From Candidatus Krumholzibacteriia bacterium (GTDB lineage Bacteria > Krumholzibacteriota > Krumholzibacteriia > WVZY01 > JAKEHA01): a stretch of 64,000 nucleotides of DNA. The stretch spans positions 4,943-68,942 of the forward strand of contig DASUGO010000106.1 in the NCBI GenBank assembly GCA_036273975.1, read 5' to 3'. The notes below the pieces were generated by a model that did no database searches, was not told where the DNA came from, and saw only the letters and a program-made list of their open reading frames with translations. Below are positions 42,087-61,776 of the stretch, piece after piece. Numbering within the stretch: the first letter of the stretch is position 1; every line of letters starts with the position of its first letter. The translations under genes were made by a program, and so were the position numbers.

Positions 42087-42110
42087 TACAATCCGGTCCC
42101 CCGACCGGCG

Positions 42111-43205: not shown

Positions 43206-43374
43206 CGTGGGGTAACCTCCATCTCCACCACCCGCCCCGGCAACCGGGGTCTGTAACTCGTGGAGTCTACGGAAAGGCCACCGGAAATGTTCGCCCCGCG
43301 GCCATTTTTCCGCGCAACGCCGGGCCGGGCGCCGGAAGTACGGCATATCCGATTAATTAACAATGAGTTACACA

Positions 43375-43950
43375 TCATGACAGAAAGTCCTCATTCCCGA
43401 GCAGATTCTTGAGCATCTCCCGCGCCCGGTGGATGCGGGCCTTGACCGTCCCGAGCGGGACCGACAGGTGGTCGGCAATCTCCTCATAGGAGAGGTCCTC
43501 CTGGTGGCGGAGGATCAGCATGATCCGGTAGTGCTCGGGGAGCGAGGTGATGGCGGCCTCGAGCCGCTCCATCTTCTGGTTGCGATCCAGGCGCTCCTCG
43601 GGGGTCGGATCCGCGGTCGCGTACTGGCGCTGGATCTCGCCCTTCTCGCCATCGATGGGCTGGTCCATCGGGAGCGTGTCGATGCGCCGCTTGCGCAGAT
43701 AGTCGATGCAGAGGTTGGACGTGATCTTGAAGAGCCAGCTCGAGAACGCATACGCGGAGTTGTAGCGGTCGAGCGAGGCGAACACTTTAATGAAGGACTC
43801 CTGGGCCAGATCGGTGGCCTCGTCGCGGTTGCGGACCATGCGCAGGCAAATGCTGAACACCGCGCGCTCGTACTTTTCGAGCAACGCCCGGTAGGCACGC
43901 TCGTCTCCCGAGCGCGCTCTCGCGACCAGCTGGATGTCCTCTTCTTTCAC
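43375..43950 (-). CDS. ECF-type RNA polymerase sigma factor (σ70 family group 4, RpoE-like)
   Basis: Region 2 (DLAQESFIKVFASLDRYNSAYAFSSWLFKITSNLCIDYLRKRR) and region 4 (LSYEEIADHLSVPLGTVKARIHRAR). The likely start is GTG at 43950 (VKEEDIQLV), and the upstream extension in the ORF track is probably spurious. Confidence 0.8.
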   Translation of the reverse strand: MKEEDIQLVARARSGDERAYRALLEKYERAVFSICLRMVRNRDEATDLAQESFIKVFASLDRYNSAYAFSSWLFKITSNLCIDYLRKRRIDTLPMDQPIDGEKGEIQRQYATADPTPEERLDRNQKMERLEAAITSLPEHYRIMLILRHQEDLSYEEIADHLSVPLGTVKARIHRAREMLKNLLGNEDFLS

Positions 43951-44161
43951 GGCGATTGAGTCGTGTTGATGGACACGCGCGTGCCGCGCCCGAGCCCGGG
44001 CGCACCACCCCGTCGCACCCAGGGGGCGCCGGAGTGGATCGTAAAGGTGTGCCGGTCCAGCGCGCTGCGGCACGCCCGCGCCGGAAACCGGATGACATGC
44101 GAGGCCGTTCGGATACTCCGCGCTCCAGGGCCATCGCCCCAAGCGCTGAAAGTGATTTATG

Positions 44162-44191
44162 TTGACACATTTTGGAAGCGGTTTCTACAGT
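44162..44191 (+). promoter_or_regulatory. Putative σ70-type promoter for eno (TTGACA–N18–TACAGT)
   Basis: A -35 hexamer ttgaca at 44162-44167 and a -10-like tacagt at 44186-44191, ~40 nt upstream of the eno ATG. Confidence 0.35.
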
Positions 44192-44220
44192 CAGATGGTC
44201 GCTGTCCCAACTTCCCCTAG

Positions 44221-45516
<1,296 letters not shown>

Positions 45517-45530
45517 GCGAGGAGGGTCGC

Positions 45531-45980
45531 ATGCGTTACTGGGAGTATGATCGCGAGGGTGGCGTGGAAAAACGAGGCGCGTTCAAGGATTACAAACCGC
45601 AGAGCCGTTGCGCGGGAACGTCGGTGGTCACCAGCGGCGGCAGCGTGGGTCCGTTCCTGCGCAAGGTCTACCAGCACCAGGTCGCCGTCAGCGCGCCCGT
45701 ACAGCGTTTCTTCCTGTTTCTGCTGCTCGCCGGCGTGATCTACGCGTTCGTGCTGGGCGACGGCGGCGCCATCCGCATCGCAATGCTGCGCCACGAGCGC
45801 GCGTCGCTCGACCGCGACATCGCGGAACTCGAACACAATGCGAGTCTCCTGCAGACCGAAATCGCGCGGCTCGACAACGATCCCCTCTACATCGAGAAGG
45901 TCGCGCGCGAGCGCTATGGCTACATCCAGAAGGGTGATCGCGTCTACAAGCTCGTCCCCACCGACGCGAAGTCCAACTAG
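45531..45980 (+). CDS. Septum formation initiator family protein (FtsB/DivIC-like)
   Basis: It starts at ATG 45531 with a gaggaggg RBS. One TM helix (FFLFLLLAGVIYAFVL) is followed by a coiled-coil (LRHERASLDRDIAELEHNASLLQTEIARLDNDPLYIEKVARERYGY). It is a common neighbour of eno. Confidence 0.65.
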   Translation: MRYWEYDREGGVEKRGAFKDYKPQSRCAGTSVVTSGGSVGPFLRKVYQHQVAVSAPVQRFFLFLLLAGVIYAFVLGDGGAIRIAMLRHERASLDRDIAELEHNASLLQTEIARLDNDPLYIEKVARERYGYIQKGDRVYKLVPTDAKSN

Positions 45981-46073: not shown

Positions 46074-47950
<1,877 letters not shown>

Positions 47951-48214
47951 AACATCATTGGCAACAATCGGTTATCCCATATTTGCTCTGAAGCCCCGGG
48001 GCATCAAGTCCGTTCTCCGCTCTCCTCGGGCTGTAACCGGCGATTCTTGCGACTCTTGCGGGCCCCACCGGCTATCCCCGACCGCTCCTTCGCGATTCTT
48101 TGGGCTCGCCGCGTGGCCCAGCGGCGGAGAAGGGAAAGCACTATTTCGGCCTGCCCAGAATCCATCGGAGCCACGTCCGAAGCAATGAGCGACCAAACCG
48201 GTGCAGCCCGCGAT

Positions 48215-48397
48215 CTACCGCCCACGATCGTCCTCACCCGCAAGGTATTCCACCGTCACGCCGAGAGCTGCCGCGAGCCGTTCGAGGAGGGCTCTGCTCG
48301 GGGTCACGCGCTCTGTTTCGATCCGGCTCACGTAGCCCTCCGCAACGCCGGCCACACGGGCAATGTCGATTTGGCGCAGGCCTCGCTCCAACCGAAT
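48215..48397 (-). CDS. XRE-family helix-turn-helix transcriptional regulator (phage repressor-like)
   Basis: The HTH_3 motif is present (MIRLERGLRQIDIARVAGVAEGYVSRIETERVTPSRALLERLAAALGV). The likely start is the internal Met at 48397. Confidence 0.55.
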   Translation of the reverse strand: MRLERGLRQIDIARVAGVAEGYVSRIETERVTPSRALLERLAAALGVTVEYLAGEDDRGR

Positions 48398-48547
48398 CAT
48401 TTTGAATCTGCTCAGGCGCGTCACGGCGTTCCTCCATGTGAATTTCAATACCCACATGTAGCGTGGCCGCCAACGCAGCGCCCGTCCAGCAGATCAGGCC
48501 CGGATGGCGCTTAAGCACGTCAATTCTGTATGCTGAAAAAGGGGGGC

Positions 48548-49612
48548 TTAGCTCGAAGGGTCGTTTTCAGAAACAGAGAGGGATTTCCTGGCGTATCGAT
48601 ACGCGTTCAGGGCCCGTTTTGTGTGGCCCGCTTTGAAGGGATCATCGCCGGCTCGCTCCCGAGCATCAACGAAGATGAAGTAGACCAGCTGATCGGCCAG
48701 TCCCGCCGCCTTGTAGGTCGTGAGACCCCCACTTTTGACGAGTTCGTCGGTGAGAGCAACAAAGACCGCCTTGTCTACCCGCCGCACAAGTTGGCTACGG
48801 CTCGGCTGCCCCCTCCGGTCGCGGAGCAGTTTCCTGTGGGTGCCGGCGGCGGTACGAAGGTCATCGTCGGCAATTTCGTCAAAACGCTGCTTCCGGCGAC
48901 GCTTGTACTCCTCGACGAATGCTCCGTACTCGCGCAACTCCGGCTCGATACGCAAACGCACATCCGCCGAAACGGCGCTGGTCTCCGCAGCAATTTCCTG
49001 CAAGGCGGCAAACGTCCTCTGTAGTCGTTTGGGCACATGATCCCCGAGAGCCTTGTAGTCCCTCGCGCGCTCGACCTGCAAGGGGTCCACGTCGCGCAGC
49101 GATCGTAGACGCCCGATCGGGACCCCAGCTCCGTGGAGTTCATGGAGCAGGCCACACGCCCGGTCCACCCATGTTTTCTTCCACGCCTTCCGGTGGAGCG
49201 CGTATACGAGGATCGCATAGAGAATTGCGCGATCCTCCTTGATCGAACTCCATGCCGAAGCAGCTACCGGGCGTTGCAGCAGGTGCGCTTCATGTTCCAG
49301 CATGTCCTTCGCCATATCGTCCACTGGGGGATACTCGAATGATGAGGGGCCACTTCCCTGCCGCTGGATCGAAAAGAGAAAGCTCAGGAGGTGGGTTTCA
49401 GTCACGGAACTACCGACCCCGCCATCCCAGATATCGTCGTCGAATGCGATGAGGCCTGCGGGACACAGATAGTCGCCGTCGTCACGATAAGCAACCCACG
49501 CCATTCCGGCATCGGCACAGCGCCAGGCTTCTCGGTAGTCGTCGACCGTTAGGAGCTTCCGAAGCCCGTCGCACCGAAAGTCCGGTCTTGCTTCCCTGCT
49601 AGTCATCACCAT
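48548..49612 (-). CDS. Hypothetical protein (354 aa), mobile-element associated
   Basis: A long ORF in the dominant minus-strand orientation with host-like codon usage. No domain was recognised by eye. It overlaps the next gene by 14 nt. Confidence 0.4.
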   Translation of the reverse strand: MVMTSREARPDFRCDGLRKLLTVDDYREAWRCADAGMAWVAYRDDGDYLCPAGLIAFDDDIWDGGVGSSVTETHLLSFLFSIQRQGSGPSSFEYPPVDDMAKDMLEHEAHLLQRPVAASAWSSIKEDRAILYAILVYALHRKAWKKTWVDRACGLLHELHGAGVPIGRLRSLRDVDPLQVERARDYKALGDHVPKRLQRTFAALQEIAAETSAVSADVRLRIEPELREYGAFVEEYKRRRKQRFDEIADDDLRTAAGTHRKLLRDRRGQPSRSQLVRRVDKAVFVALTDELVKSGGLTTYKAAGLADQLVYFIFVDARERAGDDPFKAGHTKRALNAYRYARKSLSVSENDPSS

Positions 49613-50498
49613 TCTCCGTGTTTACCGTGCCGTGCGACTGCGGCCAAGCAAGTCCCTGCCAGTGCTTGTTAAAATCACCCACGAACGCCTCTGCCTCAGT
49701 TAGGGCAACCCTCCAGCACGGATGCCACAGCACAGCGCCCATGACGGTTCGGGTTGCCCGATGGTACCCCAGCGTTCGTACCACAAACATGATTCCTACG
49801 CCCGGGCCCCGTCTCGTCCGCCCGGCAGCCCGAAGAAAGGCCCTCTCGATGGGCTGTGCGGTTTCCTGGAGCAGTTGTCCCAGTCTCAGACTCTGCCCTT
49901 TGAGATATCGCAATGAGGAGATCGCCCGTGACTCAGTGTCGACTTCGTACATTCGGTCATGCGGGAACACATTGGTAAGGTCAACAGCTACCAGACCATA
50001 GTCCACGTTGACCCGACGCAACTGGCGAAACCCTTCACTCACTCGGCCAGCTACGGTTTCGGGCTTGCCATATCCAACTTTGCACGCAATGCCCCAACAT
50101 CGTCCCCGATGTGTTGCCAATACGTCGGGAGGGTCCTGCAGCGTTGCCCCGGGCGCAAACTTGTTGCAATTGAAAGCGCAAACCAGCTCGAACAACAAAT
50201 CGCGTCCCCTCGATCGCCGCCCCGGAGTAAGAAGGCCCGGGTCTCCAGCTTGAACCAGAGGGAGATACTTAAGAACTTGCTCCTCGAACGGAGTGCCGAT
50301 CGAGTCAAGCACCACGGCCGCGAGAGCTGACATGTTCGCGAGATGGTTGAGCGCCTCGTGGTGAGGATAGTCATCCGGAAAAGCCCGCTTTTCGTACAAG
50401 CACAGCAGCTCCCGGGATGACGCGATCGACTTGACCAAGGTCGAGGCGGGGCGGAACCTGATATTGTGCGAGACGAGATAGTTCTCAAAGTTCATCAA
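49599..50498 (-). CDS. Hypothetical protein (299 aa), mobile-element associated
   Basis: A long ORF co-oriented and overlapping with the 354-aa ORF. No recognisable motif. Confidence 0.4.
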   Translation of the reverse strand: MMNFENYLVSHNIRFRPASTLVKSIASSRELLCLYEKRAFPDDYPHHEALNHLANMSALAAVVLDSIGTPFEEQVLKYLPLVQAGDPGLLTPGRRSRGRDLLFELVCAFNCNKFAPGATLQDPPDVLATHRGRCWGIACKVGYGKPETVAGRVSEGFRQLRRVNVDYGLVAVDLTNVFPHDRMYEVDTESRAISSLRYLKGQSLRLGQLLQETAQPIERAFLRAAGRTRRGPGVGIMFVVRTLGYHRATRTVMGAVLWHPCWRVALTEAEAFVGDFNKHWQGLAWPQSHGTVNTENGDD

Positions 50499-50589
50499 TG
50501 CTGCTCAAGATGGCAGCAAACGATCTATCTTCCCGAAACAAATCCACTTAGCCCCTCAATCGTTCACCATTGATACCCATTGTCCTTCA

Positions 50590-52119
50590 CTACCACGAGC
50601 CACGCCTGAACGAACGCAGCGAGTTCCATCGTTCCTCCGCCTCCCACCGTTCCCTTAAGGAGGGCACAACGAAGGCGCCACAGTCTCCGCCCGAAACGAC
50701 CGACATTGCGCCCTCCATCATCGTCTGAAGCCCGTCAAAGAAGTCGTCGTGCTCGCCCTGCGGGAACAGGAGGAGCTCGTCCATCAGCGCTTGCCAGTCA
50801 ACCCACGGGCCATGGGCGATATGCTTGGCTGGCAAGAGAATCTGCCCGTTCTCCAGGAACGCCTGTAACCAGTAGGCGCGCGCCACCTTGTCGGTCGTCC
50901 GCTCCATGCGGCGGACCGGCATGTGTTTCTCCGCATCCTGCGCCAGATACTCCTGTGCCGCCACGGTCTCGATCATGACTTTCAAGGGCTTGTACTTCTG
51001 GTTCAACTGCTTGAGCTTGTCCAGGTACTCTTCCTTCGTGCACCGCCCGCGCCAGATTTCCCGCACGTAGACTTCCGAGGCATACTTCTGCTCTTTGAAC
51101 GGCCGCGCACCCACGACAATGGTCCACCAGTCCGTGTCGCTGCGCCCTGCGGAAATGATGGCCTCACGCTTCGTCGCCGCCGGGTCACAGCCAATGAAAT
51201 GGTGCATCTCGGCCCAGTTGGGCTCCTCGTCGTAGAACCGAAACCACTCTTCGCGGAAGATGTGACCCTTCATGAGGCTGGTGTCATTCTGATACTGGGC
51301 GTTGAAGATGATAGAGCCCGCCTGGCGCCGGTGCTCCTCCAACCACTCGAGCGAGAACTTCTCGGGCCATGGCGTGGCTCCGTCCGGCGCAATCGCACGG
51401 ATGATCTGGTGCTTCTCCGCGTACTCGTTTCGGATGAGGTGTCCGTAGAGGTCGAGGTGGTGGTACCGCGTCCCGATGACGAAAAGCCGCCCGTCGGGCT
51501 CCAGGCAAGGAAGCAGCGTCTGGTACCACCACGTTTTCACCCGCTCACGCTGGGTCTCGGTGCGGGCGTTCTCCTCGTCCACCAGATCGTCCGCGATGAT
51601 GAGGTCATAGTGGCGAGAGGCCACCGGGCCACCCACGCCCACGCACGTGATCGTACTCTCCTTCGCGGTTGATGTCCGAGGACCGACCACAATCTCGCGT
51701 GTGTCCCACTTGTCCTCCGAGGCGAAGTTGCCGAAGTATTCCTTCAGCCGATCGTTTTTCTCGAAGTGCGCTTTAATCTCGCGCAGAAACACCTCGGCCT
51801 GGATCTGCGTGTTTGAGGAGATCAGAATGCGGATGTTGGGGTTCTTGAGGATCTCGAAGATCACCCGGGTGATCGTGAGGATCGTCGACTTGCCGTACCC
51901 CCGTGGTGCCAGCTGGAGGCAGGTGTCCGGCGCTGCCCCCTGAAAGTCGATCATCTCCTGGTGGAACGGACGAACGTCGTAGCCGAGCACGTGGGACGCG
52001 AGGAGACCAACTCCACCCTGCCGAACAATCTCGCGCCGGACCGTCTCGCGGCGCAGAGCGCGAAGGCGGAGGACGGTCTGGCGCAGGTCACCTGATCTCG
52101 ATCTCATAGCTATCGGCAC
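50590..52119 (-). CDS. Phage terminase large subunit (TerL)
   Basis: An N-terminal ATPase with Walker A (LAPRGYGKSTILT) and Walker B/coupling motifs (DLIIADDLVDEEN), and a C-terminal RNaseH-like nuclease region (HHFIGCDPAAT...D). At ~509 aa it is typical of TerL. Confidence 0.75.
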   Translation of the reverse strand: MPIAMRSRSGDLRQTVLRLRALRRETVRREIVRQGGVGLLASHVLGYDVRPFHQEMIDFQGAAPDTCLQLAPRGYGKSTILTITRVIFEILKNPNIRILISSNTQIQAEVFLREIKAHFEKNDRLKEYFGNFASEDKWDTREIVVGPRTSTAKESTITCVGVGGPVASRHYDLIIADDLVDEENARTETQRERVKTWWYQTLLPCLEPDGRLFVIGTRYHHLDLYGHLIRNEYAEKHQIIRAIAPDGATPWPEKFSLEWLEEHRRQAGSIIFNAQYQNDTSLMKGHIFREEWFRFYDEEPNWAEMHHFIGCDPAATKREAIISAGRSDTDWWTIVVGARPFKEQKYASEVYVREIWRGRCTKEEYLDKLKQLNQKYKPLKVMIETVAAQEYLAQDAEKHMPVRRMERTTDKVARAYWLQAFLENGQILLPAKHIAHGPWVDWQALMDELLLFPQGEHDDFFDGLQTMMEGAMSVVSGGDCGAFVVPSLRERWEAEERWNSLRSFRRGSW

Positions 52120-52150
52120 AACAACACCTCCTGCCGGCTCGCTTTCGCCG

Positions 52151-53068
52151 CTATTCCCACCCGAGGACTTCTTGCAGGTATTCCAACGCCGGGCGCCCTT
52201 CTCTGTCGAGTTGGATACGATAGCCCGACTCGATCCTCTCCTTCACGCGTTGCCCTACCTTATAGGCGGATCCATGCAGGGTCGTCAGGCCGTGGTCCTC
52301 GGTAACCCCGAGTCGTCGGAGATTGAGGTCATCATAGCCAAACCCCAGGAAGTGAATCGCCCTGTAACTGCCTAGATGAAGAGACACATGCCTGAACGGC
52401 TCTCGCGTGATCCCAGGATCATAGGGGATCCGCAAGCACTCCGCGCATCCAGCTATGGCGTCACACGCTACCTCCATACCGTACGGCCGGCTGTAGCTGC
52501 TCGCGGTATCCTGCGCGTTTGGCTGTTCCCACGGGAGATGCCCTAACTTGCCATACATGTGGTCGATCGTAAGCGAATTAACGAAGCGCGCAGCGTCGGC
52601 CTCGGTGCGATTCAATCGGTTCACGATCCACGTGAACAGAAAATGCTCGAGCGAACGATCGTAATTGAACGTGACAAAACCGATTCTCCGATTATCAAGA
52701 TCGGAAGGTCCTGGGAAGAAATGCCGCGCTAGCAGCGCGTACCAGTTCCCGTTCTTCCTATCAAACAGCCTCGCCTCGTCCTCCCGGCGCGCAAGCTCAT
52801 GCGCCATGATCGCCCGGCCCATATCCGAATAGCGCCAGTTGTGCTCCAAGAACTGATCAATCGTCCCCGCCACAGAACGCGTAAGGCGGTCCCGAAAGTC
52901 ACCTATGTCCTCGTCACCATACCCGAGTTCGCCGAGAGTGCGACGAATCGGCGAACTGTCATCGGCTAGCCCGTCAATGATGGAGTCGCAAAGGTCCCGG
53001 CCGGTGGGAAACCCGAAGGGAACGCTGGCACCGGCTCCCAAGACCAGCAGAATCGGTTCATCCGGCAT
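52151..53068 (-). CDS. SIR2_2-family (defence-type sirtuin-like, predicted NAD+-consuming) protein
   Basis: It opens with the SIR2_2 hallmark LLVLGAGASVPFGFPTGRDL. The conserved TFNYDRSLE (N-Y-D) motif and a downstream KLGH (KLHG-like) motif are also present. The start could be any of several Met codons between 53068 and 53167. Confidence 0.6.
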   Translation of the reverse strand: MPDEPILLVLGAGASVPFGFPTGRDLCDSIIDGLADDSSPIRRTLGELGYGDEDIGDFRDRLTRSVAGTIDQFLEHNWRYSDMGRAIMAHELARREDEARLFDRKNGNWYALLARHFFPGPSDLDNRRIGFVTFNYDRSLEHFLFTWIVNRLNRTEADAARFVNSLTIDHMYGKLGHLPWEQPNAQDTASSYSRPYGMEVACDAIAGCAECLRIPYDPGITREPFRHVSLHLGSYRAIHFLGFGYDDLNLRRLGVTEDHGLTTLHGSAYKVGQRVKERIESGYRIQLDREGRPALEYLQEVLGWE

Positions 53069-53085
53069 CCTGATTCCCCAAGCCG

Positions 53086-53745
53086 TCATAGGATTGATCG
53101 CCACCATTTCTTTGGCGGCCATAAGAGCTTCACTTGTGGTTTCCAGAACATCGGATCGACCATGCAAACGCCGTCCTGCCCCTCGACGTGCGTGATCATG
53201 ACGTTTGATTCTCCATGGTACTCAGGCCGCTGGGCGAAGCCGAGGTAGGCCGCAAACTGGTCGAAGGCGTGGTGCTCGAAAAACTCCTTGGGAACGATCT
53301 TGTGAAGCGCCCCGAACTCGCCAGACCTTGCCCAGACCCTCAGGCGCCCGGTATGTGCCGCTTCCCGCACCTCTTGCGCTATTCTCAAGTATGGATCGAC
53401 GAGAGCGTCAATCTGCCTGTCGGTGAGTTCAGGTTCATCTTTGGGTGCAATACTCACCATCGGGCGAAGCCCCGATCCGATCCGGCTCTCATTCCCCAGG
53501 TAGTGCAACAACTCATCCATCGTGAAGTTCGGCCGCGGCCACGCGTACCACCAGAGCCAAATCGTCGCTCGCACGCCAAGATAGACGAACAACACGGTCG
53601 CACCGAGAAGTGCAGGAATCAGATAAGCGGGCACGCGATCAATCACAGCGAGAACGGTCGCGCACCCCGCTAGAACCCAGATCACTACCTGTCCAGCAAA
53701 AGCAAGCTCGCCAAGAACCTGTAACGAGCGTCTAAGTCTGTTCAT
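53086..53745 (-). CDS. Two-TM membrane protein with a ~130-aa cytoplasmic domain (hypothetical), operonic with the SIR2-like gene
   Basis: Two N-terminal hydrophobic helices (VVIWVLAGCATVLAVI; LIPALLGATVLFVYLGVRATIWLWWYAW) then a soluble domain. Its stop lies within ~20 nt of the SIR2 start, and its start overlaps the upstream Zn-ribbon ORF by 4 nt. Confidence 0.45.
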   Translation of the reverse strand: MNRLRRSLQVLGELAFAGQVVIWVLAGCATVLAVIDRVPAYLIPALLGATVLFVYLGVRATIWLWWYAWPRPNFTMDELLHYLGNESRIGSGLRPMVSIAPKDEPELTDRQIDALVDPYLRIAQEVREAAHTGRLRVWARSGEFGALHKIVPKEFFEHHAFDQFAAYLGFAQRPEYHGESNVMITHVEGQDGVCMVDPMFWKPQVKLLWPPKKWWRSIL

Positions 53746-54266
53746 TCTCTGTCCGCGTCATTCGTGATCTTGTTGTTCCGATGCTTGTCGCGGCCATGCC
53801 CTCGGTGCTCCGACAACGGCTCGTCGCATTCGTGAATGATCTCGCCCGTTTCCAGATCGGTCACCTTCTCTTTGTATAGATTGCGATCGCGGTCGGCCGA
53901 CCACTCCCGCCACACACGCGTCCCTCGGTCGCGCGACAACTCGTCCGCTGCCTTGAAACGCTGCCGCGCCTTTTCTCTGCTCGGCCTGCTCGGGTCCTTG
54001 ATCGTGCTGGAGATGGTTTCAAATGCCGTCGGGCCCGTGTCGTTGATCTCAAGCGAATCAGACACCTTCACCGCGCCACCCCCACATCGGGGGCACGTCC
54101 GATCATCGATCGGATCGCCGCCCTTCGAGACAGCGCCGCACGCTGAACAGATGATAATTGTGGACACCGCACCTCCTTCCTTCAGCCCGGAGCCTGGCCC
54201 CGTTGCGCAGATTATGGCCGCCCAGAACCACAAGCACAAGGGCCTCGGGGCGCTCGGAGTCCCCAT
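53742..54266 (-). CDS. Zinc-ribbon protein (CxxC...CPRCGG) with a charged C-terminal tail (hypothetical)
   Basis: The motif IICSACGAVSKGGDPIDDRTCPRCGGG, then a highly charged region (REKARQRFKAADELSRDRGTRVWREW...). The start codon is uncertain. Confidence 0.4.
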   Translation of the reverse strand: MGTPSAPRPLCLWFWAAIICATGPGSGLKEGGAVSTIIICSACGAVSKGGDPIDDRTCPRCGGGAVKVSDSLEINDTGPTAFETISSTIKDPSRPSREKARQRFKAADELSRDRGTRVWREWSADRDRNLYKEKVTDLETGEIIHECDEPLSEHRGHGRDKHRNNKITNDADRE

Positions 54267-54357
54267 ATCTTGGGGGGTTGACTCCCGCGCCCCCGGGAAG
54301 CGTTCATGAACCAGCCCCGGCCCGCGGCGCGCCGCCCGGCGGTGCCAACAGGGACCC

Positions 54358-54993
54358 ATGCTGGACTTCGCATCCCAAGAAGAGATCGCCCGCGCGATGC
54401 TGGCGATGGTGCGCTACCTGCCCGCCCTCGTCCGGGCGTTCGAGGCGGGTGTTATCGACCTCGGCCTCACCATCACCGAGCGGGCCTTGAGCCGCGACGC
54501 GGAAGGCACTGTGCTCCCCACGCTCGTGGTCAAGGGCGGGCACCTCACCTACCACCTCGGCCTCCGGAACGCCATTGAGGACTTCCTCGCCGTCGACCGC
54601 GAGGCCCGGCCGGTTCACGTGGACCCCGGCCTCGATGACGACACTTACGCGCAAGCGAAGATCGCCGACATCATCTCCGGGCGGCTGGCGCTCGTAAAGC
54701 TCGTCGAGGAGAGCTCGGACCTCGCGGAGGCGCAACAACGCATGAAGGACCTGGGCAAGGGGTTTGCCTGGCTCCGCTCGGTTGTCGTGGACGGCCCAGA
54801 GAACGTCGAGAGACCCGTGTGCAAACTGGTTGGGACCGACGGCAACGTGTTCGCCGTCATCGGTCGGGTCCGAGAGACACTCCAACGTGCGGGGCAGACT
54901 AGCAGTGCGTCGGAGTTCGTGAAGCGAGCATTTGCCGCTCGGTCCTACGACGAGGTGCTCCGGCTGTGCATGGAATACGTGGAGGTTCGATGA
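54358..54993 (+). CDS. Hypothetical protein (211 aa), translationally coupled to the tyrosine integrase
   Basis: An ORF with good codon usage. Its stop overlaps the integrase start as ATGA. It is the first gene of a plus-strand block within a minus-strand region. Confidence 0.45.
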   Translation: MLDFASQEEIARAMLAMVRYLPALVRAFEAGVIDLGLTITERALSRDAEGTVLPTLVVKGGHLTYHLGLRNAIEDFLAVDREARPVHVDPGLDDDTYAQAKIADIISGRLALVKLVEESSDLAEAQQRMKDLGKGFAWLRSVVVDGPENVERPVCKLVGTDGNVFAVIGRVRETLQRAGQTSSASEFVKRAFAARSYDEVLRLCMEYVEVR

Positions 54994-55886
54994 TGCAAGC
55001 GATGACGCTTCAGGCAGCGATCCAACGATTCGAGGTCCAGCTCCGGGCGGACGGGAAGAGCCCCCGGACCCGGGAGTGCTACCTCTGGGACCTGGAACGC
55101 CTCGCCCGGGCTCTGGGCCCCAGGACTGCGGTGCGGTCTATCACGCCCCACCGGCTGGCCCTGTTCGTCAACTCCTCGGGGTTCGCCTTGACCCCGGCCG
55201 GCCGGCCCAAGAAGCCCGCGTCCGTCAACCGCTCAAAGACCGCCCTCCGGGTGTTCTTCCGGTTCCTCGTCGACTCGGACTACTTGACCCGAAACCCGGC
55301 CCGACTTGTGCGATACGCGCGCCTGCAGCAGCTCCCAGCGCGGGCGATGAAAGCCGCGGAAGTGGATCAGCTGCTCAAGACGATCGGCAAGCACCGCGGG
55401 CCGCTCGCCCGGCGCGACGAACTGATGTTCCGGCTCATGCTGGGTACGGGAATCCGGCTGGGGTCGCTGGTCGGCTTGAACCTCGGGGATCTGGACTTGA
55501 AGGCGGGGACGCTGCGTATCAAGGCGAAGGGGGGCGTCGAGCAAACGGTATACCTGAACGCAGGCCTTCGGCGGGACCTCGGCCTTCACGTCAAGACGCA
55601 GACGGGCGGTGAAGGTTCTGTCTTCCGCTCGCACGGGGGTGGTCGAATCGGCCCCCGCCAGGTCCAGATTCGGTTTGCGCATTGGCGGGACCGGGTGGGA
55701 CTCGGTCAGGTCTTTACGGTGCATTCCCTTCGCCACACCTTCGCGACCCGGCTCTATCAACAGACCCGCGATCTGCACCTCGTTCGGGAGGCTCTCGGTC
55801 ATGCGAGCGTCGGGACAACTCAACGGTACGCGGTGGTGGACAAGCGGAGCCTTCGATCTGCCATTACTCGCCTGTCAGTCCCGTGA
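54990..55886 (+). CDS. Tyrosine-type site-specific recombinase/integrase (XerC/XerD-like)
   Basis: An N-terminal SAM-like core-binding domain (CYLWDLERLARAL) and the catalytic domain R...HSLRHTFATRLY...LGHASVGTTQRY with the catalytic Tyr context. Confidence 0.85.
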   Translation: MMQAMTLQAAIQRFEVQLRADGKSPRTRECYLWDLERLARALGPRTAVRSITPHRLALFVNSSGFALTPAGRPKKPASVNRSKTALRVFFRFLVDSDYLTRNPARLVRYARLQQLPARAMKAAEVDQLLKTIGKHRGPLARRDELMFRLMLGTGIRLGSLVGLNLGDLDLKAGTLRIKAKGGVEQTVYLNAGLRRDLGLHVKTQTGGEGSVFRSHGGGRIGPRQVQIRFAHWRDRVGLGQVFTVHSLRHTFATRLYQQTRDLHLVREALGHASVGTTQRYAVVDKRSLRSAITRLSVP

Positions 55887-56039
55887 TGCTCTCCCTGAGA
55901 AAGTCCCTCGCTGACCCGCCAAGGCAAGGCGCTCGATTCTTTCCTATGCTATTCTGATAGTCTGACCAACCGGACCTTCAGTTTCTTGTACCCATCGGAA
56001 ACGCAGTGGTTACAACGCTCATGACGTGCACCGCGACCG

Positions 56040-56786
56040 ATGGAGCCTGGCGGTAGGTTGACGGCCGGTCGGCACTGGGCCTCATCCGAAGGAACCATTG
56101 TATTGCTGCGAGTCAGCGTCGTCTTTGTCTTGCGCGCGCTGGTACGTTCCGAGTGGCGCATGGTGCGCCTCCGAGTCGAGCTTGAGCGCACACGCCTTGC
56201 CAACCGCGTCGACGTTGCTCCGCCTCTGATCGCCCAGCAGTTGCTTGTCTCGGGCGAGGATCACAGACACGCCCGGCATCCAGGCTTCGATCTATTCGCA
56301 ATTGGCCGCGCACTCTGGCGGCGTGTGGCACATGGATCGCGTGAAGGTGCCAGCACAATCGAGCAGCAGGTAGTCCGTACAATCACAGGGCGATACGAGC
56401 GCACCCTTCGTCGCAAATTGAAGGAGATACTGCTCGCCATCCTCGTGGCCCAGTCCTTTCCGAAGGAGATCCTCCCATCTGTATATCTCCAGATCGCTTA
56501 TTATGGTTGGCGTATGAATGGTTATCAGCAGGCGTGCCAGCGGCTTGGGCTGCATCCCAGCTCCTTGGCGCTGGACGAAGCCGCCGGTTTGGTCGCGCGG
56601 CTGAAGTATCCCGAGCCGAGAACCGCACCGTCCACGCGAACGCTTCAGATCGGTTACCGTACGGAGCACCTACTTGGCCTTTATCGGCGGCACGTGCATG
56701 AAGGGAATTACAGGCATCTCAATGGCAAGACCGTTTGCAATAGAGCCTCGGCTCATGCAGCTACTGAGCCCATACCCGAGCGCTGA
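56040..56786 (+). CDS. Monofunctional peptidoglycan glycosyltransferase (GT51 transglycosylase)-like protein
   Basis: An N-terminal TM (IVLLRVSVVFVLRALV) and GT51 motifs (GEDHRHARHPGFDLFAIGRALWRRVAHG...GASTIEQQVVR...RRKLKEILLAILVAQSFPKEILPSVYLQIAYYG). It lies in the lower-GC cargo region. Confidence 0.55.
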   Translation: MEPGGRLTAGRHWASSEGTIVLLRVSVVFVLRALVRSEWRMVRLRVELERTRLANRVDVAPPLIAQQLLVSGEDHRHARHPGFDLFAIGRALWRRVAHGSREGASTIEQQVVRTITGRYERTLRRKLKEILLAILVAQSFPKEILPSVYLQIAYYGWRMNGYQQACQRLGLHPSSLALDEAAGLVARLKYPEPRTAPSTRTLQIGYRTEHLLGLYRRHVHEGNYRHLNGKTVCNRASAHAATEPIPER

Positions 56787-57405
56787 CGAGCTCCGCGCGG
56801 CGTTATCCGGAGGCACGCGCCGTAGCCGAGAGATCGTCACGCGTCTCTGGCTGACCGAAGGCCTCCCCGCTGCCTTCCGAGGTTGCCCCGCGATATACGA
56901 AGAAGTGCGCGGCTGGCTCGGCACTCAACTTGGCATCCATCCGAAGGAGATTACGCTCATCGGGAGCGCGAGAGTCGGCTACTCACTCGCCCCAGCGCCC
57001 GATTTCGGAAGGCGCTTTGGCAAACACTCTGACCTCGATCTGAGCGTCATTTCCGCGCAGCTATTCGCACGTTTGGTTACGGCGTTCAACCTTTTCGCAG
57101 ACGATTACAGACAGAACTCCGCGGTCCCCAGGAGCGATCGCGAGCGTGAGCTCTGGGACGACAATCTCCAATTCGGTCGGCGCAACATTCCTCGAGGCTT
57201 TCTGGACGCCAGAAAGATACCGAACTTCGCCCGTTACTCGGATTCTCAAAACATCAACCAAACAATGTGGGTGCTGCTGAAAAAGTTTGAAGTCACTCCT
57301 GGAGCACCCGAGGTTCGGAGGGTTTCCGTCCGCGTGTACCGAGATTGGCAATGCTTCATCGACCAAGTTTCGCTGAATCTTCGAAGCGCGCTTCCCACAG
57401 CGTAA
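56755..57405 (+). CDS. Pol-β-fold nucleotidyltransferase (minimal NTase; SMODS/CD-NTase-like or MNT-like)
   Basis: The signature LIGSARVGYSLAPAPDFGRRFGKHSDLDLSVI matches the hG[GS]...D.D motif of pol-β NTases. Downstream acidic candidates (FADDY, WDDN) could supply the third catalytic residue. The start (56722 or 56755) is uncertain because it overlaps the GT51-like ORF. Confidence 0.45.
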   Translation: MQLLSPYPSADELRAALSGGTRRSREIVTRLWLTEGLPAAFRGCPAIYEEVRGWLGTQLGIHPKEITLIGSARVGYSLAPAPDFGRRFGKHSDLDLSVISAQLFARLVTAFNLFADDYRQNSAVPRSDRERELWDDNLQFGRRNIPRGFLDARKIPNFARYSDSQNINQTMWVLLKKFEVTPGAPEVRRVSVRVYRDWQCFIDQVSLNLRSALPTA

Positions 57406-57632
57406 TCTGCGTTAGGGCAAATACGCGCTACGCCTTTAGGGCAACGCCTCCCCGGCATCCCGAATCCCTCGGGCGGCATCAGGGCAATGCAGGGCTTCGC
57501 TGTGATCGACAACCGGGGCCCGCCCGCTGCCGTAATTGGTCCTCTCCTTGTTGCAGTCCATTCAACTCCGTTTCCGAACAGGCATCCATGCAGACTTGCG
57601 AAACGCTGTGCTCGCGCCAAGACGCCTGACTG

Positions 57633-58352
57633 ATGATCTGCGCGCTCATCGACTACTGGCGCTATAGGCGACGCCCAGGGCGATTCGGCATCATTGGCCA
57701 GAGGAGCCTGATGACCTCGGCGTACAATGGGACGTTGCCGGACGCCTTAGTCGACCGCCTTCGGCCGGGAGACATCCTGTTTATCCAGAGCCTGCATTCC
57801 TTCCCGGCCTGGCTGGTTATGTACCTCACCAAGTCCGAGGTCAGCCATGTCGCTTCGTATATCGGTGGCAAACGTATCATTCACGCAACTTTCAGCGGCG
57901 TTACCGAGGAGCCACTGGCCGTGCTATTCACGCCTAACACGCTCCTATTCGCCTGCGGAACGCGCTCCACGTCCGAGCAGCAAACTTCCTTCGTTCCAGC
58001 TGCGAGAGCGCGTGTGGGGAGGCGCTATGGTTGGTTCTGGGTTGTTCTCAAGGGGCTATTTATCTTCACCGGCCGGGACCCGCTTTACTTCCGATGGAGC
58101 TTCTTTCTTGATTTCGCGGTCCTATTTGTCGCCCTTGGCGCACCGTTCGTTGCCCTAGAATGGTTCCCTTTTCCATTGCTGCTGTTTCCTATGTACTTCC
58201 TCGTTGTTATTATGAACTCGCTGATTGCACACCACCGACCGCTGCCCGTCGTCGGACTACTTGCCAAGCCCGTTGAGGTACTCATGATCGCGTGGGCGGA
58301 AGGGTGGGACTTCTACCTGAATCCAGCGGGTGGCGCGGATCCCGATTCCTAG
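57633..58352 (+). CDS. Membrane protein with an N-terminal permuted papain-fold (LRAT/YaeF/NlpC-P60-like) domain and C-terminal multi-TM region
   Basis: A His-first permuted NlpC/P60 pattern (RPGDILFIQS...SHVASYIGGKRIIHA, then a Cys in LLFACGT). The C-terminal ~110 aa form 3-4 hydrophobic helices (WFWVVLKGLFIF; FLDFAVLFVALGAPFVAL; LLLFPMYFLVVIMNSLIA). Confidence 0.4.
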   Translation: MICALIDYWRYRRRPGRFGIIGQRSLMTSAYNGTLPDALVDRLRPGDILFIQSLHSFPAWLVMYLTKSEVSHVASYIGGKRIIHATFSGVTEEPLAVLFTPNTLLFACGTRSTSEQQTSFVPAARARVGRRYGWFWVVLKGLFIFTGRDPLYFRWSFFLDFAVLFVALGAPFVALEWFPFPLLLFPMYFLVVIMNSLIAHHRPLPVVGLLAKPVEVLMIAWAEGWDFYLNPAGGADPDS

Positions 58353-58403
58353 GGCATTGGTACAGATCTGCACCCCCGGCGGGCTAATTCTTGCTCTCAG
58401 CAA

Positions 58404-58557
58404 GGCCTCCGCCACCGTTGCCACCCGGCTTTGCCTTCAGACTCGCGATCTCCATCTCGTTCGAGAGGCCCTCGGGCACGCGGGCGTCGGGACGACACAG
58501 CGGCACGCTGTCGTGGACCGGAAAAGCCTCCGCACCGCCATCGCGCGTCTCCGATAG
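58404..58557 (+). pseudogene. Degenerate 3' fragment of a tyrosine integrase gene, paralogous to 55738-55886
   Basis: The translation VATRLCLQTRDLHLVREALGHAGVGTTQRHAVVDRKSLRTAIARLR aligns with the intact integrase C-terminus FATRLYQQTRDLHLVREALGHASVGTTQRYAVVDKRSLRSAITRLSVP. The nucleotide similarity is roughly 70% by eye. It has no N-terminal part. Confidence 0.55.
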
Positions 58558-58592
58558 CCGGGAGACCTCTGTTTGGCTACCAGATCCCCCTC

Positions 58593-60155
58593 CTAGAGAA
58601 TGTCGTCTAAATACTTGACGACCCCCAGCCGCAAGCGGTGTGGAAAGACCAGCAAGAACAGGGGTAGGAGCTGAGGACACTGGCCAATACCCACCGGTAG
58701 TTCATCGGCGGCCTTCGCAGCCTCTTCAACCAGTTGCTTCCAGCTCTGCGTTTGATTCGGAAATCGACTCCGCAGTTCGCCGTGTCGTGCACGATACGTG
58801 TAATACTCCCAAGTATCCTTGGGCACAAACTCAGACATGTTGCTTCGACTTATCGGTCGCCACTTCGTTTCAAGGTATTTTCGCATGCCGCTTCGTACGG
58901 CAAGCGTGACCAGTGAGTCAAGCGCATACGAGTTGCCTGCAAATGTTTCATCCGCAGCCTCAACCGCGAGGCCCATCTGCCCCCGAACGATTGACTCGAG
59001 TTCGTAATACGGGCTCATCAGTTCATACTGGTCGTGCTCGTTGGCGGCGATAATCGAATTGATCAGTTTCTGCAAGAGCTTCATCGCCCACTCCACTTTC
59101 TCCGTCGCCTCAAGGTACCAGATGATGTTCAAGAAGCACGGAAACGCCGCTTCCGAGTACAGCATGAACGCTTCTTGATGCTGTTCGATGAACTGACTCG
59201 TATCATCGGATCTCCAATCCGACTTCCCCAAGAGCTTCCTGGTCAAGCCGAGAGCCGCCAAGTATCCAGCAATGAGTGTCGCCCGGTACCTAACAAACCG
59301 ACCGTCGAAGAAACTCGTTCCCATCAGCAGATCGGGGCTATTCGCTGCCTCTTTTTCGAGCTCCCCGAGCGCGCGTTCCACGCCCTCCAAACACAAGGAG
59401 ATAGTCGTCCTGAACTCTCCATAACTCCCTACTTTTTCTGCAAGAGCACAGGCCGTCGCCGCAACAATGACCAAGCTGTCGGCAACCGCCCACCAGTTCT
59501 TTTCCCGTTCGTGCGGGGCAATCAGATAGCTTCCGATCAGCAATCCACTAGCTGCAGCGCGGCAGCCATGTTTCGCATCTGTCTCGGTGTCGAGTCCCGT
59601 CAGGGACCGGAGAATCTGAGCGAGATCGCTTCTGGGAGCCGGAGCACGCCCATCGCGCGCATAAAGGTTAAGGAACGATCGCAGATCACTGACTTCCCGG
59701 GGCAAGAAGTGTTCGCTTGCATTCGTGAACTGAGTGAGCAATTGGCCCTTCACAAGCACATCGAGGGTGTTCCCTCCCGAACGCCTCCGGTCCTCGTTCC
59801 GGTCGTCGATCTGGCGTCTTACAGGATCTTTCAGATCTCCGGAGACGACCAGACAAGCTCGGTGGCGTTTGGACTTGTCGACGCTGGGGTGATGGATTGC
59901 AATATCGAGAAGCTCTTCAACCTCCCCGACTATCTGACGCCATCGGGCAAGTGTAATGTCTCCGACTTTCAGCTGGTAGGCGCACGGCGTACCGTCTGGA
60001 TGGATGGTGATGACGTCTTTGCCTTGCTCGTCCGGTCCGTGCGGAGACAGGTGCACTATCTCATGCCCTTGCAACGCGAGCAGCTGACAGAACGGGACCT
60101 GAAAGGCGCGCTCCTCGACATCAGTCAACCAGTTTTCGATTACCCTCTCGATCAT
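58593..60155 (-). CDS. Hypothetical 520-aa protein with a putative N-terminal PD-(D/E)xK-like nuclease motif
   Basis: In the first ~70 aa the N-terminus (VEERAF...HLSPHGPDEQGKDVITIHPDGTPCAYQLK) has an E...PD...Q-x-K arrangement reminiscent of restriction-endonuclease-fold nucleases. The rest is a long α-helical region. It lies in the lowest-GC part of the window. Confidence 0.4.
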   Translation of the reverse strand: MIERVIENWLTDVEERAFQVPFCQLLALQGHEIVHLSPHGPDEQGKDVITIHPDGTPCAYQLKVGDITLARWRQIVGEVEELLDIAIHHPSVDKSKRHRACLVVSGDLKDPVRRQIDDRNEDRRRSGGNTLDVLVKGQLLTQFTNASEHFLPREVSDLRSFLNLYARDGRAPAPRSDLAQILRSLTGLDTETDAKHGCRAAASGLLIGSYLIAPHEREKNWWAVADSLVIVAATACALAEKVGSYGEFRTTISLCLEGVERALGELEKEAANSPDLLMGTSFFDGRFVRYRATLIAGYLAALGLTRKLLGKSDWRSDDTSQFIEQHQEAFMLYSEAAFPCFLNIIWYLEATEKVEWAMKLLQKLINSIIAANEHDQYELMSPYYELESIVRGQMGLAVEAADETFAGNSYALDSLVTLAVRSGMRKYLETKWRPISRSNMSEFVPKDTWEYYTYRARHGELRSRFPNQTQSWKQLVEEAAKAADELPVGIGQCPQLLPLFLLVFPHRLRLGVVKYLDDIL

Positions 60156-60720
60156 GCCAGTCCTTCCGCTTGCGCTCCATCAACTCGGTAAAACGCCGCT
60201 TGCAGTCTTCCTTCTGTTCCCATGCGGGCATCTCCTTCCGGATGTGCGCACCCAATTCCGGACTAACGACGAGCGCCGGCATCTTCGGCTTTCCGCTTCC
60301 TTCATCAAAATCAATTTCCAAACGCTCCAGCGCTTCGAGAAACAGATCAAAGGAAAACGGCTTTCCGCATCCATCAACAGCGGTACCCGCTTCCTCAGAA
60401 ACACGCGATACAGTGGAATACATCATTCGGGCAAGGTTCCCCGCCATTTCCTCGGCGACTTTGTCAAACTTCTCCATGATCTCGGCAACAGATAGGTCTT
60501 TCAATTCCTCATGAGTTATCGTGAAGTCCACGCCGAGATCCTTGTAATCCATTTGACGCCGCCCACCCTCCACGGTTCTGTAGGCGCGCGTGTCTCCTTC
60601 GTGTTGCGCCGAACGCCCCACTGTCGCAAGGAATGGGTCGGCCGAATGAACGCGCGCGCGTACGCGCTGATTGACCAAGTTCATGAGTTCGCGATGTATC
60701 GCCGGGAAGTCTGGAAGCAT
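60121..60720 (-). CDS. Hypothetical 199-aa protein, overlapping upstream partner of the 520-aa gene
   Basis: An ORF co-oriented with the 520-aa gene and overlapping it by 35 nt. Acidic and helical, with no recognised motif. Confidence 0.35.
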   Translation of the reverse strand: MLPDFPAIHRELMNLVNQRVRARVHSADPFLATVGRSAQHEGDTRAYRTVEGGRRQMDYKDLGVDFTITHEELKDLSVAEIMEKFDKVAEEMAGNLARMMYSTVSRVSEEAGTAVDGCGKPFSFDLFLEALERLEIDFDEGSGKPKMPALVVSPELGAHIRKEMPAWEQKEDCKRRFTELMERKRKDWHDREGNRKLVD

Positions 60721-61264
60721 AGGTTCTTTCTTGTTCTAAGTCCTTTTGTGCATTTGGACGAGGGGCACACCGCGTCGGCTTTTCGCGGTGTCAGGCGCAT
60801 CTCCGTCCGGTTTCCTCTGCATCAGGAGGCCATTCGTTCTTAGAGCGGCAGCCGGGTCGGAGAACCATTCCAGGACATCCCGGCAGCGAACGGGAAAGTC
60901 ATGAACGAAGTCGCGGTAGTGCGTCATGGGAGCGGTGTCAGAGTCTATCGGGCGCGCTGCCCAGGGTCTAGCAAAACGCCCCGTTTCTGACCCATTTGCT
61001 GTACCGAGGGATAGCGCCCCGTCGGGGGGCTGGGATCGGCGTAACTGGCTTTGGGGGAATGTGATAGGCGGACCGCCCCGGGCGGTCGAGAGCCCCTGGA
61101 GGCCCAAACTAGCCCGTTTCTGAAAAACCCTTCTTACGGTCTACTTAGGGACAGCAGATTTCCCTCCATTATAGCGATCTGATAGAACGCATTAGGCGAA
61201 ATCGGGGGATAGCAGGGGGACAGCAGCGGTACAGCACGCGCCCGCTCGCCTTCTCCACGAGCAC

Positions 61265-61549
61265 TCACCGTCGCTTCGAGCGCGACGCGCGCTGCGCCCG
61301 TCGCCGCGCCGCACGGTTCATCGGTGCGTCGGCCGCCGGCGCATCGACCCCCGGGTGCTTGCGCCGAAACTCCACGGCCGCACACCGCTCGCACCAGTAC
61401 TCGCCGCCCGACATCGTGTAGCCGTCCTCTCCGAGGGAGATCACCACGTTGCATTTCGCGCAATGCGTGGGCTCGAACGCCGGCGGGTTCTCCAGCTTCT
61501 CGAAGTTGTATTCGTTGGTCCCGTAGTAGACGTACAGCTCCGTCTCCAA
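61265..61549 (-). CDS. Small zinc-ribbon-like protein (two CxxC pairs), hypothetical
   Basis: HCAKCNV...YWCERCAAV, followed by a basic tail. The call is tentative. Confidence 0.3.
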   Translation of the reverse strand: METELYVYYGTNEYNFEKLENPPAFEPTHCAKCNVVISLGEDGYTMSGGEYWCERCAAVEFRRKHPGVDAPAADAPMNRAARRRAQRASRSKRR

Positions 61550-61776
61550 CTCGCCGCGACATTGCTCGCAGTCCTGCCAGCGCCCGGCGTGCTCTTCCGC
61601 CCAATGGGACCCGCAGAGAGATCGAAGTTGGGGAGCAGGTCACTGCTTGAGGTGGAATGACGGGCACAAGCTCGATCTCGCCCCTCGAGGGCGCCGGGCG
61701 GGACCACTATACCTGAGGACATCATGCCCTTCGGCTTGCCGTACGAGCTAGAATACGCGAAACGAACAAGATCCGA

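Follow-up and report, generated by a model that had tools for sequence, protein, structure and literature searches.

Three closely packed genes, encoding a Zn-ribbon protein, a protein with two hydrophobic segments and a SIR2-like protein, raise the question of whether they form one antiviral system or whether the SIR2-like protein acts on its own. They lie on the minus strand, as consecutive and co-directional open reading frames (ORFs) at 52151-54359 of the window, the 64,000-nucleotide stretch of Candidatus Krumholzibacteriia DNA that we analysed. An initial annotation, made from the letters alone, had proposed that the three genes constitute an abortive-infection module in which a membrane-anchored sensor is joined to an enzyme that depletes nicotinamide adenine dinucleotide (NAD+). 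Our analyses point to another answer. The SIR2-like protein (SIR2L) is probably an autonomous, AbiH-like, single-gene candidate defence enzyme that consumes NAD+ (an NADase), carried as cargo by a small integrative island. The genes concerned, together with the large terminase subunit (TerL) gene that follows them, are listed below.

52151..53068, minus strand: SIR2-like gene (SIR2L), 305 amino acids, with GAGAS at residues 11-15, TFNYDR at 133-138, H170-M-Y172-G173 and FLGFGY at 240-245.
53086..53745, minus strand: protein with two predicted transmembrane segments (2-TM protein), 219 amino acids, two N-terminal hydrophobic segments and a soluble C-terminal domain of ~145 amino acids; a near-orphan.
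53742..54167, minus strand: Zn-ribbon protein, 141 amino acids, with an N-terminal CxxC...CxxC motif and a conserved C-terminal beta-rich domain ending in TGEIIHECDEPLSEHRGHG.
50590..52119, minus strand: TerL, 509 amino acids, 31 nucleotides downstream of SIR2L.

The three genes are located where the initial annotation had placed them, and their junctions are as tight as it described. The Zn-ribbon and 2-TM genes overlap by 4 nucleotides (53742-53745), and the gap between the 2-TM stop (53086) and the SIR2L start (53068), earlier put at about 20 nucleotides, is 17 nucleotides. A further 31 nucleotides separate the SIR2L stop (52151) from the GTG start of TerL (52119), which is preceded by an AGGAGG Shine-Dalgarno sequence. 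No terminator-like site was found in the intergenic stretches between the Zn-ribbon, 2-TM, SIR2L and TerL genes. The SIR2L ORF is open to 53167, and about 50 homologues all begin M-[IV]-x-x-x-T-V-L-V-L-G-A-G-A-S; because their N-termini place it there, we take ATG 53068 as the start, giving the 305-amino acid protein. The Zn-ribbon ORF (53742-54359) holds CSACG...CPRCG, in agreement with its earlier description as a CxxC...CxxC Zn-ribbon. Its start had been set at 54266, about 100 nucleotides too far upstream. From the sequence, GTG 54167 is the most likely start and would give 141 amino acids, since AAGGAGG lies 4 nucleotides upstream of it, the public gene call has the same 141 amino acids and the N-termini of the homologues agree.

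The SIR2 identity of SIR2L was settled by fold and family evidence, because direct searches with profile hidden Markov models (HMMs) fail. Such scans gave no match of SIR2L itself to Pfam (E <= 0.1), NCBIfam or PHROG. The SIR2 models of PADLOC matched only weakly (E about 1e-3), with the match confined to the N-terminal GAGAS loop, and the best match of a phmmer search against PDB sequences was KomC, at a marginal E of 0.27 that became 6e-4 when a family profile was used. The initial annotation had described the protein as SIR2_2-like. That description suits many of its relatives: Pfam SIR2_2 (PF13289) is matched by 56 of 91 aligned relatives at E <= 0.01 (best 4.7e-7), and 90 of the 91 match a PADLOC SIR2 model weakly. 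Because these relatives match PF13289 and the window protein does not, the family appears by sequence to be a divergent fringe of SIR2_2. An AlphaFold2 model of SIR2L, built from the family alignment, has a predicted local distance difference test (pLDDT) score of 93.6 and a predicted template modelling (pTM) score of 0.92. Every significant Foldseek match of this model is a SIR2 protein (SIR2-HerA, KomC, SPARSA, ThsA, DSR2 and sirtuins), and defence SIR2s rank above deacetylase sirtuins among them. SIR2L is thus predicted to have a Rossmann-type SIR2 catalytic fold of the defence-type branch.

The active site agrees with this assignment in part. Both the GAGxS NAD-binding loop and the Asn of TxNYD are present in SIR2L, and a profile alignment pairs its motifs with GAGVS and TTNYDR of KomC. 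The opening motif LLVLGAGASVPFGFPTGRDL and the TFNYD catalytic-Asn motif, on which the initial annotation had relied, are therefore not peculiar to the window protein, as GAGAS is nearly invariant and TFNYDR invariant throughout the family. Across 91 sequences, G11, G13, S15, T133, F134, N135, Y136, D137, R138, G242-F-G244 and N249 are invariant or nearly so. The second half of the expected Asn/His pair departs from the canonical arrangement: while the Asn (N135) is invariant, the protein lacks a catalytic His directly before the conserved Gly. In KomC this residue is H146, the one changed in PDB entry 9xvc ('KomC(H146N)'), and in the profile alignment it falls on Tyr172 of SIR2L. Of the 91 family members, 51 have His and 40 have Tyr at residue 172. 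The two alternate among close relatives, and no column covarying with them was found in the family alignment. H170, two residues earlier, is kept in 89 of 91 members. The codons for H170-M-Y172-G173 lie at 52553-52564 of the window, and the family motif is H-x-[H/Y]-G, which we read as a family-specific arrangement in which H170 would be the constrained residue. The conserved motif pattern, together with H170 in 89 of 91 members, indicates that the family is an enzyme under purifying selection. If the family is an active NADase defence, the natural alternation of His and Tyr at the canonical position would make it possible to test directly which residue is the catalytic one.

SIR2L was also found to be widespread and solitary. 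Its homologues form at least 866 protein clusters (E <= 1e-3), whose members almost all have 295-330 amino acids. In a genome set containing a single genome for each species, tblastn confirmed 449 relatives, which come from many bacterial phyla and also from some archaea; uncultured phyla commonly have the family. Searches by tblastn gave no match to deposited phages and four remote Rhizobium matches to plasmids. From the 449 genome-set relatives, 80 loci were fetched with their flanks, and partners were sought in 80-82 SIR2L loci by BLAST of the window proteins, by all-versus-all clustering of neighbours at positions -4 to +4, and by Pfam and PADLOC scans. None of the 80 fetched loci contained a relative of the Zn-ribbon, 2-TM or terminase proteins, and no neighbour cluster at these positions occurred in more than 4 of 81 loci. 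The immediate neighbours, 146 in number, fell into 132 Pfam families, the commonest of which had 4 members. A defence-like minority among the neighbours includes AAA_21/AriA/PtuA-type ATPases, putAbiC, AbiP, PD-T4-6, PDC-S15, MADS and Type ISP restriction-modification genes. The family of SIR2L is large and unstudied, and its members are short SIR2-like enzymes that stand alone. A GIY-YIG-like gene (141 or 142 amino acids) was found upstream of SIR2L in two related loci, L087 (1145-1570) and L106 (641-1069); in L106 an Nmad2-domain gene stands between the two, and the gene downstream of SIR2L was checked as a possible TerL and is not one.

We favour an immune NADase because of the SIR2 fold, the conserved NAD-site motifs and a solitary, patchy, context-free distribution over phyla and some archaea. 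Use of NAD+ by SIR2L is quite likely, and its independence of the two upstream genes is likelier still, with high probability; for a role in defence the balance tips only modestly in favour. NAD+ depletion as a defence logic has been demonstrated for ThsA, DSR2, SIR2-HerA and KomC. In bacteria, most SIR2 proteins of this clade serve immunity, and AbiH has been placed in the immune SIR2 clade (bioRxiv 10.1101/2024.09.18.613514). AbiH of Lactococcus lactis is a single-gene abortive-infection protein for which a SIR2-like nature, and possibly NAD depletion, have been predicted (PMC13064643). By analogy, SIR2L would bind NAD+ via its GAGAS Rossmann loop and would cleave it, or transfer from it, using the Asn/Asp of TFNYDR and the conserved His. 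Once triggered, it would deplete NAD+ and arrest the infected cell, that is, cause abortive infection. Because no sensor partner or sensor domain is present, the trigger is expected to act directly on SIR2L, via the helical insertion (about 23-117) or the C-terminal subdomain (about 255-305). Activation may involve assembly into oligomers or filaments, given that PDB entries show filaments of KomC, ThsA, Avs5 and FAM118B. If SIR2L is an active single-protein NADase defence, it would be a minimal SIR2 immune module of ~300 amino acids, with no sensor domain and no partner, and how such a partner-less enzyme is held off and switched on becomes the question. Current defence censuses may miss the family, because its matches to PADLOC-DB v2 are weak and none of Pfam, NCBIfam and PHROG has a family dedicated to it.

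The setting of SIR2L bears on these questions. The closest relatives of the window protein, in L001 (60% identity), L002 (55%) and L087 (50%), lie in the same mobile-element backbone, which is common to window 46074-55886, L001, L002, L084-L088, L094 and L095 (fetching loci by TerL added further members). The order of the element is tyrosine integrase, variable slot, TerL, variable gene or genes, conserved 354-amino acid protein, helix-turn-helix (HTH) regulator, small gene and large serine recombinase. In the window, the parts other than TerL and the slot genes are as follows.

46074-46150, plus strand: tRNA-Met, the island boundary.
46107-46742 (211 amino acids) and 46739-47950 (403 amino acids), minus strand: large serine recombinase, split, with Resolvase, Recombinase and Zn_ribbon_recom domains.
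48004-48243, minus strand: 79-amino acid gene of the island backbone.
48215-48457, minus strand: HTH regulator, matching PHROG HTH families.
48548-49612, minus strand: conserved 354-amino acid protein, 49-51% identical in L002, L086, L094 and L095.
49599-50498, minus strand: variable 299-amino acid protein of the island backbone.
54275-54307, minus strand: conserved 33-nucleotide block ATGAACGCTTCCCGGGGGCGCGGGAGTCAACCC, between the divergently oriented genes, bordering the variable slot on its integrase side.
54358-54993, plus strand: 211-amino acid protein with a C-terminal phrog_1933 domain (E 5e-18), divergent from the cargo operon.
54966-55886, plus strand: tyrosine integrase (PF00589, E 1.9e-31), likewise divergent from the cargo operon, 70-74% identical in L001, L002, L084 and L085.

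TerL (phrog_38, E 4.9e-97; NCBIfam T7-type terminase, 7e-26) is the best conserved gene of the island, with 73-83% identity in L001, L002 and L084-L088, and is no more than 29% identical to any deposited phage terminase. The 33-nucleotide block aligns in the window, L001, L002, L084 and L087 while its flanks diverge, and a pattern search recovered it, with 6-7 mismatches, from L001 and L084. The block may serve the elements as a common site for regulation or recombination. The initial annotation was right to place the three genes beside a terminase, near an integrase and in a mobile region, and comparison of the elements adds that the place they occupy is variable. Its contents, between the integrase and TerL, are these.

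Window: Zn-ribbon gene, 2-TM gene and SIR2L.
L001: an unrelated 87-amino acid CxxC protein, and SIR2L.
L002: SIR2L, then a 196-amino acid gene.
L087: unknown ORFs of 107 and 176 amino acids, a GIY-YIG-like 141-amino acid gene, and SIR2L.
L085 and L086: an HNH-like 304-amino acid protein.
L084: nothing (about 470 nucleotides).

SIR2L is one of several alternative cargo genes in the integrase-TerL slot. The 304-amino acid proteins of L085 and L086 were considered as divergent forms of SIR2L and were rejected as HNH-like. Pfam and PADLOC scans of the other slot cargo were almost entirely blank, and no PADLOC model was matched.

Several points weigh against reading SIR2L as an autonomous immune enzyme. 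The family is known from sequences and a predicted fold alone, and from these we infer NADase activity, defence and the trigger. Canonical NADase chemistry is not assured, because Tyr172 sits at the position of the catalytic His146 of KomC. In other genomes, the genes next to SIR2L are mostly not recognisable as defence genes, and they include housekeeping genes. The slot is not demonstrated as a defence hotspot, because the other cargo proteins match no PADLOC model. Lastly, the 4-nucleotide overlap, the 17- and 31-nucleotide gaps and the lack of intergenic terminators allow for functional coupling in this island. The Tyr in place of the canonical His, seen in the window protein and 40 of 91 relatives and alternating with His without a compensating column, would fit a non-immune protein that serves the island's own biology, as would the many neighbours that are not defence genes. 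Such a protein would be a sirtuin-like enzyme modifying proteins or small molecules (a deacylase or an ADP-ribosyltransferase), or else one whose catalytic activity is altered or lost. We consider such a role unlikely, given that defence SIR2s are the best structural matches, ahead of deacetylase sirtuins, that a patchy spread over phyla and variable contexts are typical of conflict genes, and that both H170 and the TFNYDR motif are conserved.

Coupling of SIR2L to its neighbours can be judged from the related elements. That the trio is one abortive-infection system, with a membrane-anchored sensor activating the NADase, is suggested by the shared strand, the overlap, the 17-nucleotide gap and the absence of a terminator-like site between the genes; in the sister element L001, too, the gene of a small CxxC...CxxC protein directly precedes SIR2L. 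This 87-amino acid protein, however, is not homologous to the Zn-ribbon protein of the window, and the spacing that speaks for coupling is seen in one contig only. HMMs of both proposed partners found nothing at E <= 10 in 82 SIR2L loci. The 2-TM protein is a near-orphan, the Zn-ribbon homologues occur in four unrelated contexts that lack SIR2L, and the closest relatives of SIR2L (L001, L002 and L087) share the backbone and have neither partner; in L002, SIR2L directly follows the integrase. A general rule that a small zinc-ribbon gene precedes SIR2L was tried and rejected, since a CxxC...CxxC ORF was found upstream in 2 of 73 loci and, as a downstream control, in 1 of 71. The initial annotation had stated that its proposal would fall if the three genes were syntenic in no other genome. 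They are together nowhere else, and the three-gene module therefore lacks support; nor did homologues of the Zn-ribbon protein co-occur with a SIR2 gene in the contexts examined. We regard the single-system explanation as highly improbable, and we infer that in vivo the Zn-ribbon and 2-TM genes are separate, unrelated passengers sharing an operon with SIR2L only in this contig. Tight gene spacing in the cargo slot of a mobile element is not evidence of a multi-gene system. A functional tie to TerL, in which SIR2L would modify or regulate a packaging motor, either the island's or that of a helper phage, or would be the effector of a terminase-based interference, is also very unlikely. It draws on gene order: TerL is the next gene after SIR2L in the window (across a gap of 31 nucleotides), L001 and L087, and in L002 a single gene intervenes. 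Packaging partners usually occupy this position. Against it, TerL occurs without SIR2L in L084, L085, L086 and L088, and SIR2L occurs without TerL in the 80 genome loci and in L106 and L107. Moreover, TerL is 79-83% identical across elements whose SIR2L is 50-60% identical, and the two evolve as backbone and cargo. We thus return to SIR2L as an autonomous candidate NADase. What is new at this locus is not a three-gene cassette but a SIR2-like family that is widespread, has yet to be characterised, lacks partners and has its conserved His in a shifted position.

Comparison with known systems leads to a similar position. SIR2L is not a member of any named system among those tested and resembles a member of the SIR2 defence superfamily. 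Structurally it is nearest to the SIR2 subunit of SIR2-HerA/Nezha and to KomC; in function and architecture it is nearest to AbiH. Like SIR2L, AbiH (PF14253) is encoded by a single gene, is ~300-350 amino acids long, is predicted to be SIR2-like, is borne on mobile elements and has no partner (PMC13064643; bioRxiv 10.1101/2024.09.18.613514). The window protein, however, has no PF14253 match, 5 of 91 relatives match it weakly (best E 3.8e-4), and AbiH is not among the 18 PADLOC families that the relatives match. Further, a phage phenotype has been demonstrated for AbiH, whereas the SIR2L family is known from genes alone.

Membership in Thoeris, SIR2-HerA, SPARSA, DSR, Kongming or Avs5 fails because their partners or fused domains are absent, and scans of the window genes and the size of the protein bear out the earlier statement that no partner of Thoeris, SIR2-HerA, SPARSA or DSR is present. 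KomC of Kongming (PDB 8zsf, 9xvc and 9v0g) works with a partner, as the entry titles describe KomBC complexes with dITP, whereas SIR2L has no conserved neighbour in 81 loci, whose genes were not searched specifically against KomA or KomB; the catalytic H146 of KomC also corresponds to Tyr172. The SIR2 subunits of SIR2-HerA/Nezha (PDB 8w9l, PsSIR2; 8j4u; 8sub) have 360-400 amino acids, compared with 305 in SIR2L, and no HerA match was found in the scanned window genes or among the commonest neighbour families elsewhere. SIR2L consists of the SIR2 fold only, whereas ThsA of Thoeris has SLOG/Macro and a TIR-domain neighbour, ThsB; neither TIR nor SLOG was detected in the scanned window neighbours or among the 25 commonest families of the 146 neighbours elsewhere. 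In contrast to SPARSA and other short prokaryotic Argonaute (pAgo) systems, SIR2L has no APAZ or Piwi match and is too short. DSR1 and DSR2 are proteins of ~1000 amino acids with an N-terminal SIR2 and a sensor region, well apart from a family of 295-330 amino acids. In Avs5, SIR2 is fused to STAND, whereas SIR2L has no fused domain or such neighbour.

The island itself does not fit the prophage setting that had been proposed for the genes. Between 46 and 64 kb of the window, TerL is the sole match to a head or packaging gene and no other virion gene was found, although a lysis role for the Transgly-domain and NlpC/P60-like genes of that region was not tested. Because TerL is the only virion gene detected there, we consider the element a small integrative island with a lone terminase and no recognisable prophage. 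In phage-inducible chromosomal islands (PICIs), whose median size is 9.5 kb, accessory genes separate the integrase from the regulatory module (PMC10085698). PICIs encode a small terminase and a primase-replicase, and the capsid-forming type (cfPICI) carries TerL with capsid, portal and connector genes (PMC10085698). The present island shares with PICI and P4-like hotspots a small, integrase-bearing form and variable accessory genes beside the integrase. It differs from PICIs and cfPICIs in having TerL without another virion gene, and two recombinases, one tyrosine and one large serine. Capsid, portal and tail genes were not detected in the family of lone-terminase islands, which, at roughly 10 kb, may be an undescribed satellite-like element. 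As a possible new type of satellite, this family may be more unusual than SIR2L itself and deserves attention of its own. A more far-reaching proposal, that SIR2L founds a widespread family of autonomous, partner-less immune NADases, found mainly in uncultured organisms, in which the essential His has moved by two residues, and that its carrier is an undescribed, phage-parasitic, TerL-only island with the space between integrase and terminase as its cargo slot, is conceivable but on balance doubtful.

Little can be said about what the two passengers do. A Kyte-Doolittle scan of the 2-TM protein bore out the two hydrophobic segments seen earlier, centred at ~17-31 and 47-55. The protein matched no Pfam, PADLOC, PHROG or NCBIfam family, and a word-indexed search of 5.8 billion proteins returned no homologue besides itself. 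An exhaustive HMMER search of 1.84 billion representative proteins gave only two remote homologues, P0139 (4e-14) and P0140 (1.5e-4), both over the C-terminal domain only; in the contig that was read, P0139 adjoins an IS1595 transposase. The Zn-ribbon protein has 16 homologues (P0123-P0138), 5 of which have no ribbon. The conserved part of this family is the C-terminal beta-rich domain ending TGEIIHECxEPLSEHRGHG, and the ribbon is optional. Its AlphaFold2 model has a pLDDT above 90 for residues 50-120, and a structural search with the C-terminal domain gave no informative match. The homologues were seen after an HTH gene, between unknown genes near SbcC/SMC-like ATPases, after a Peptidase_M78 and DUF4411 pair, and after a redoxin gene. 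In these four contexts the SIR2L HMM found nothing, and there was no 2-TM neighbour.

Some further observations concern the borders of the island. L084, an independent element, also abuts a tRNA-Met (15360-15435), located as in the window at the 3' end of the serine recombinase gene, and the host genes beyond the tRNA are shared, with up to 85% amino acid identity between window 40647-45836 and L084 15453-20576. The far border of the island would be marked by a repeat of the tRNA-Met 3' end, but a search of the window found no such second copy. The two halves of the serine recombinase overlap by 4 nucleotides, and its relatives are single proteins of 616-633 amino acids; the split may reflect a disrupted gene or an assembly error. 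The G+C content at 48000-64000 of the window is 55-61%, compared with 63-70% in the first 45 kb, and because the drop continues there, the foreign region seemingly extends past the integrase to the end of the window. Beyond the intact integrase by 2.5 kb lies a direct duplicate of the integrase 3' end (58330-58557; 46 amino acids, 72-78% identical to the integrases). It brackets three genes, encoding a Transgly-domain protein (56040-56786), an unknown 243-amino acid protein and an NlpC/P60-like membrane protein (57633-58352). An integrase fragment of the same kind is found in L084 (4913-5170), and the duplicate suggests an event at the integrase end, either insertion of a cassette or tandem integration.

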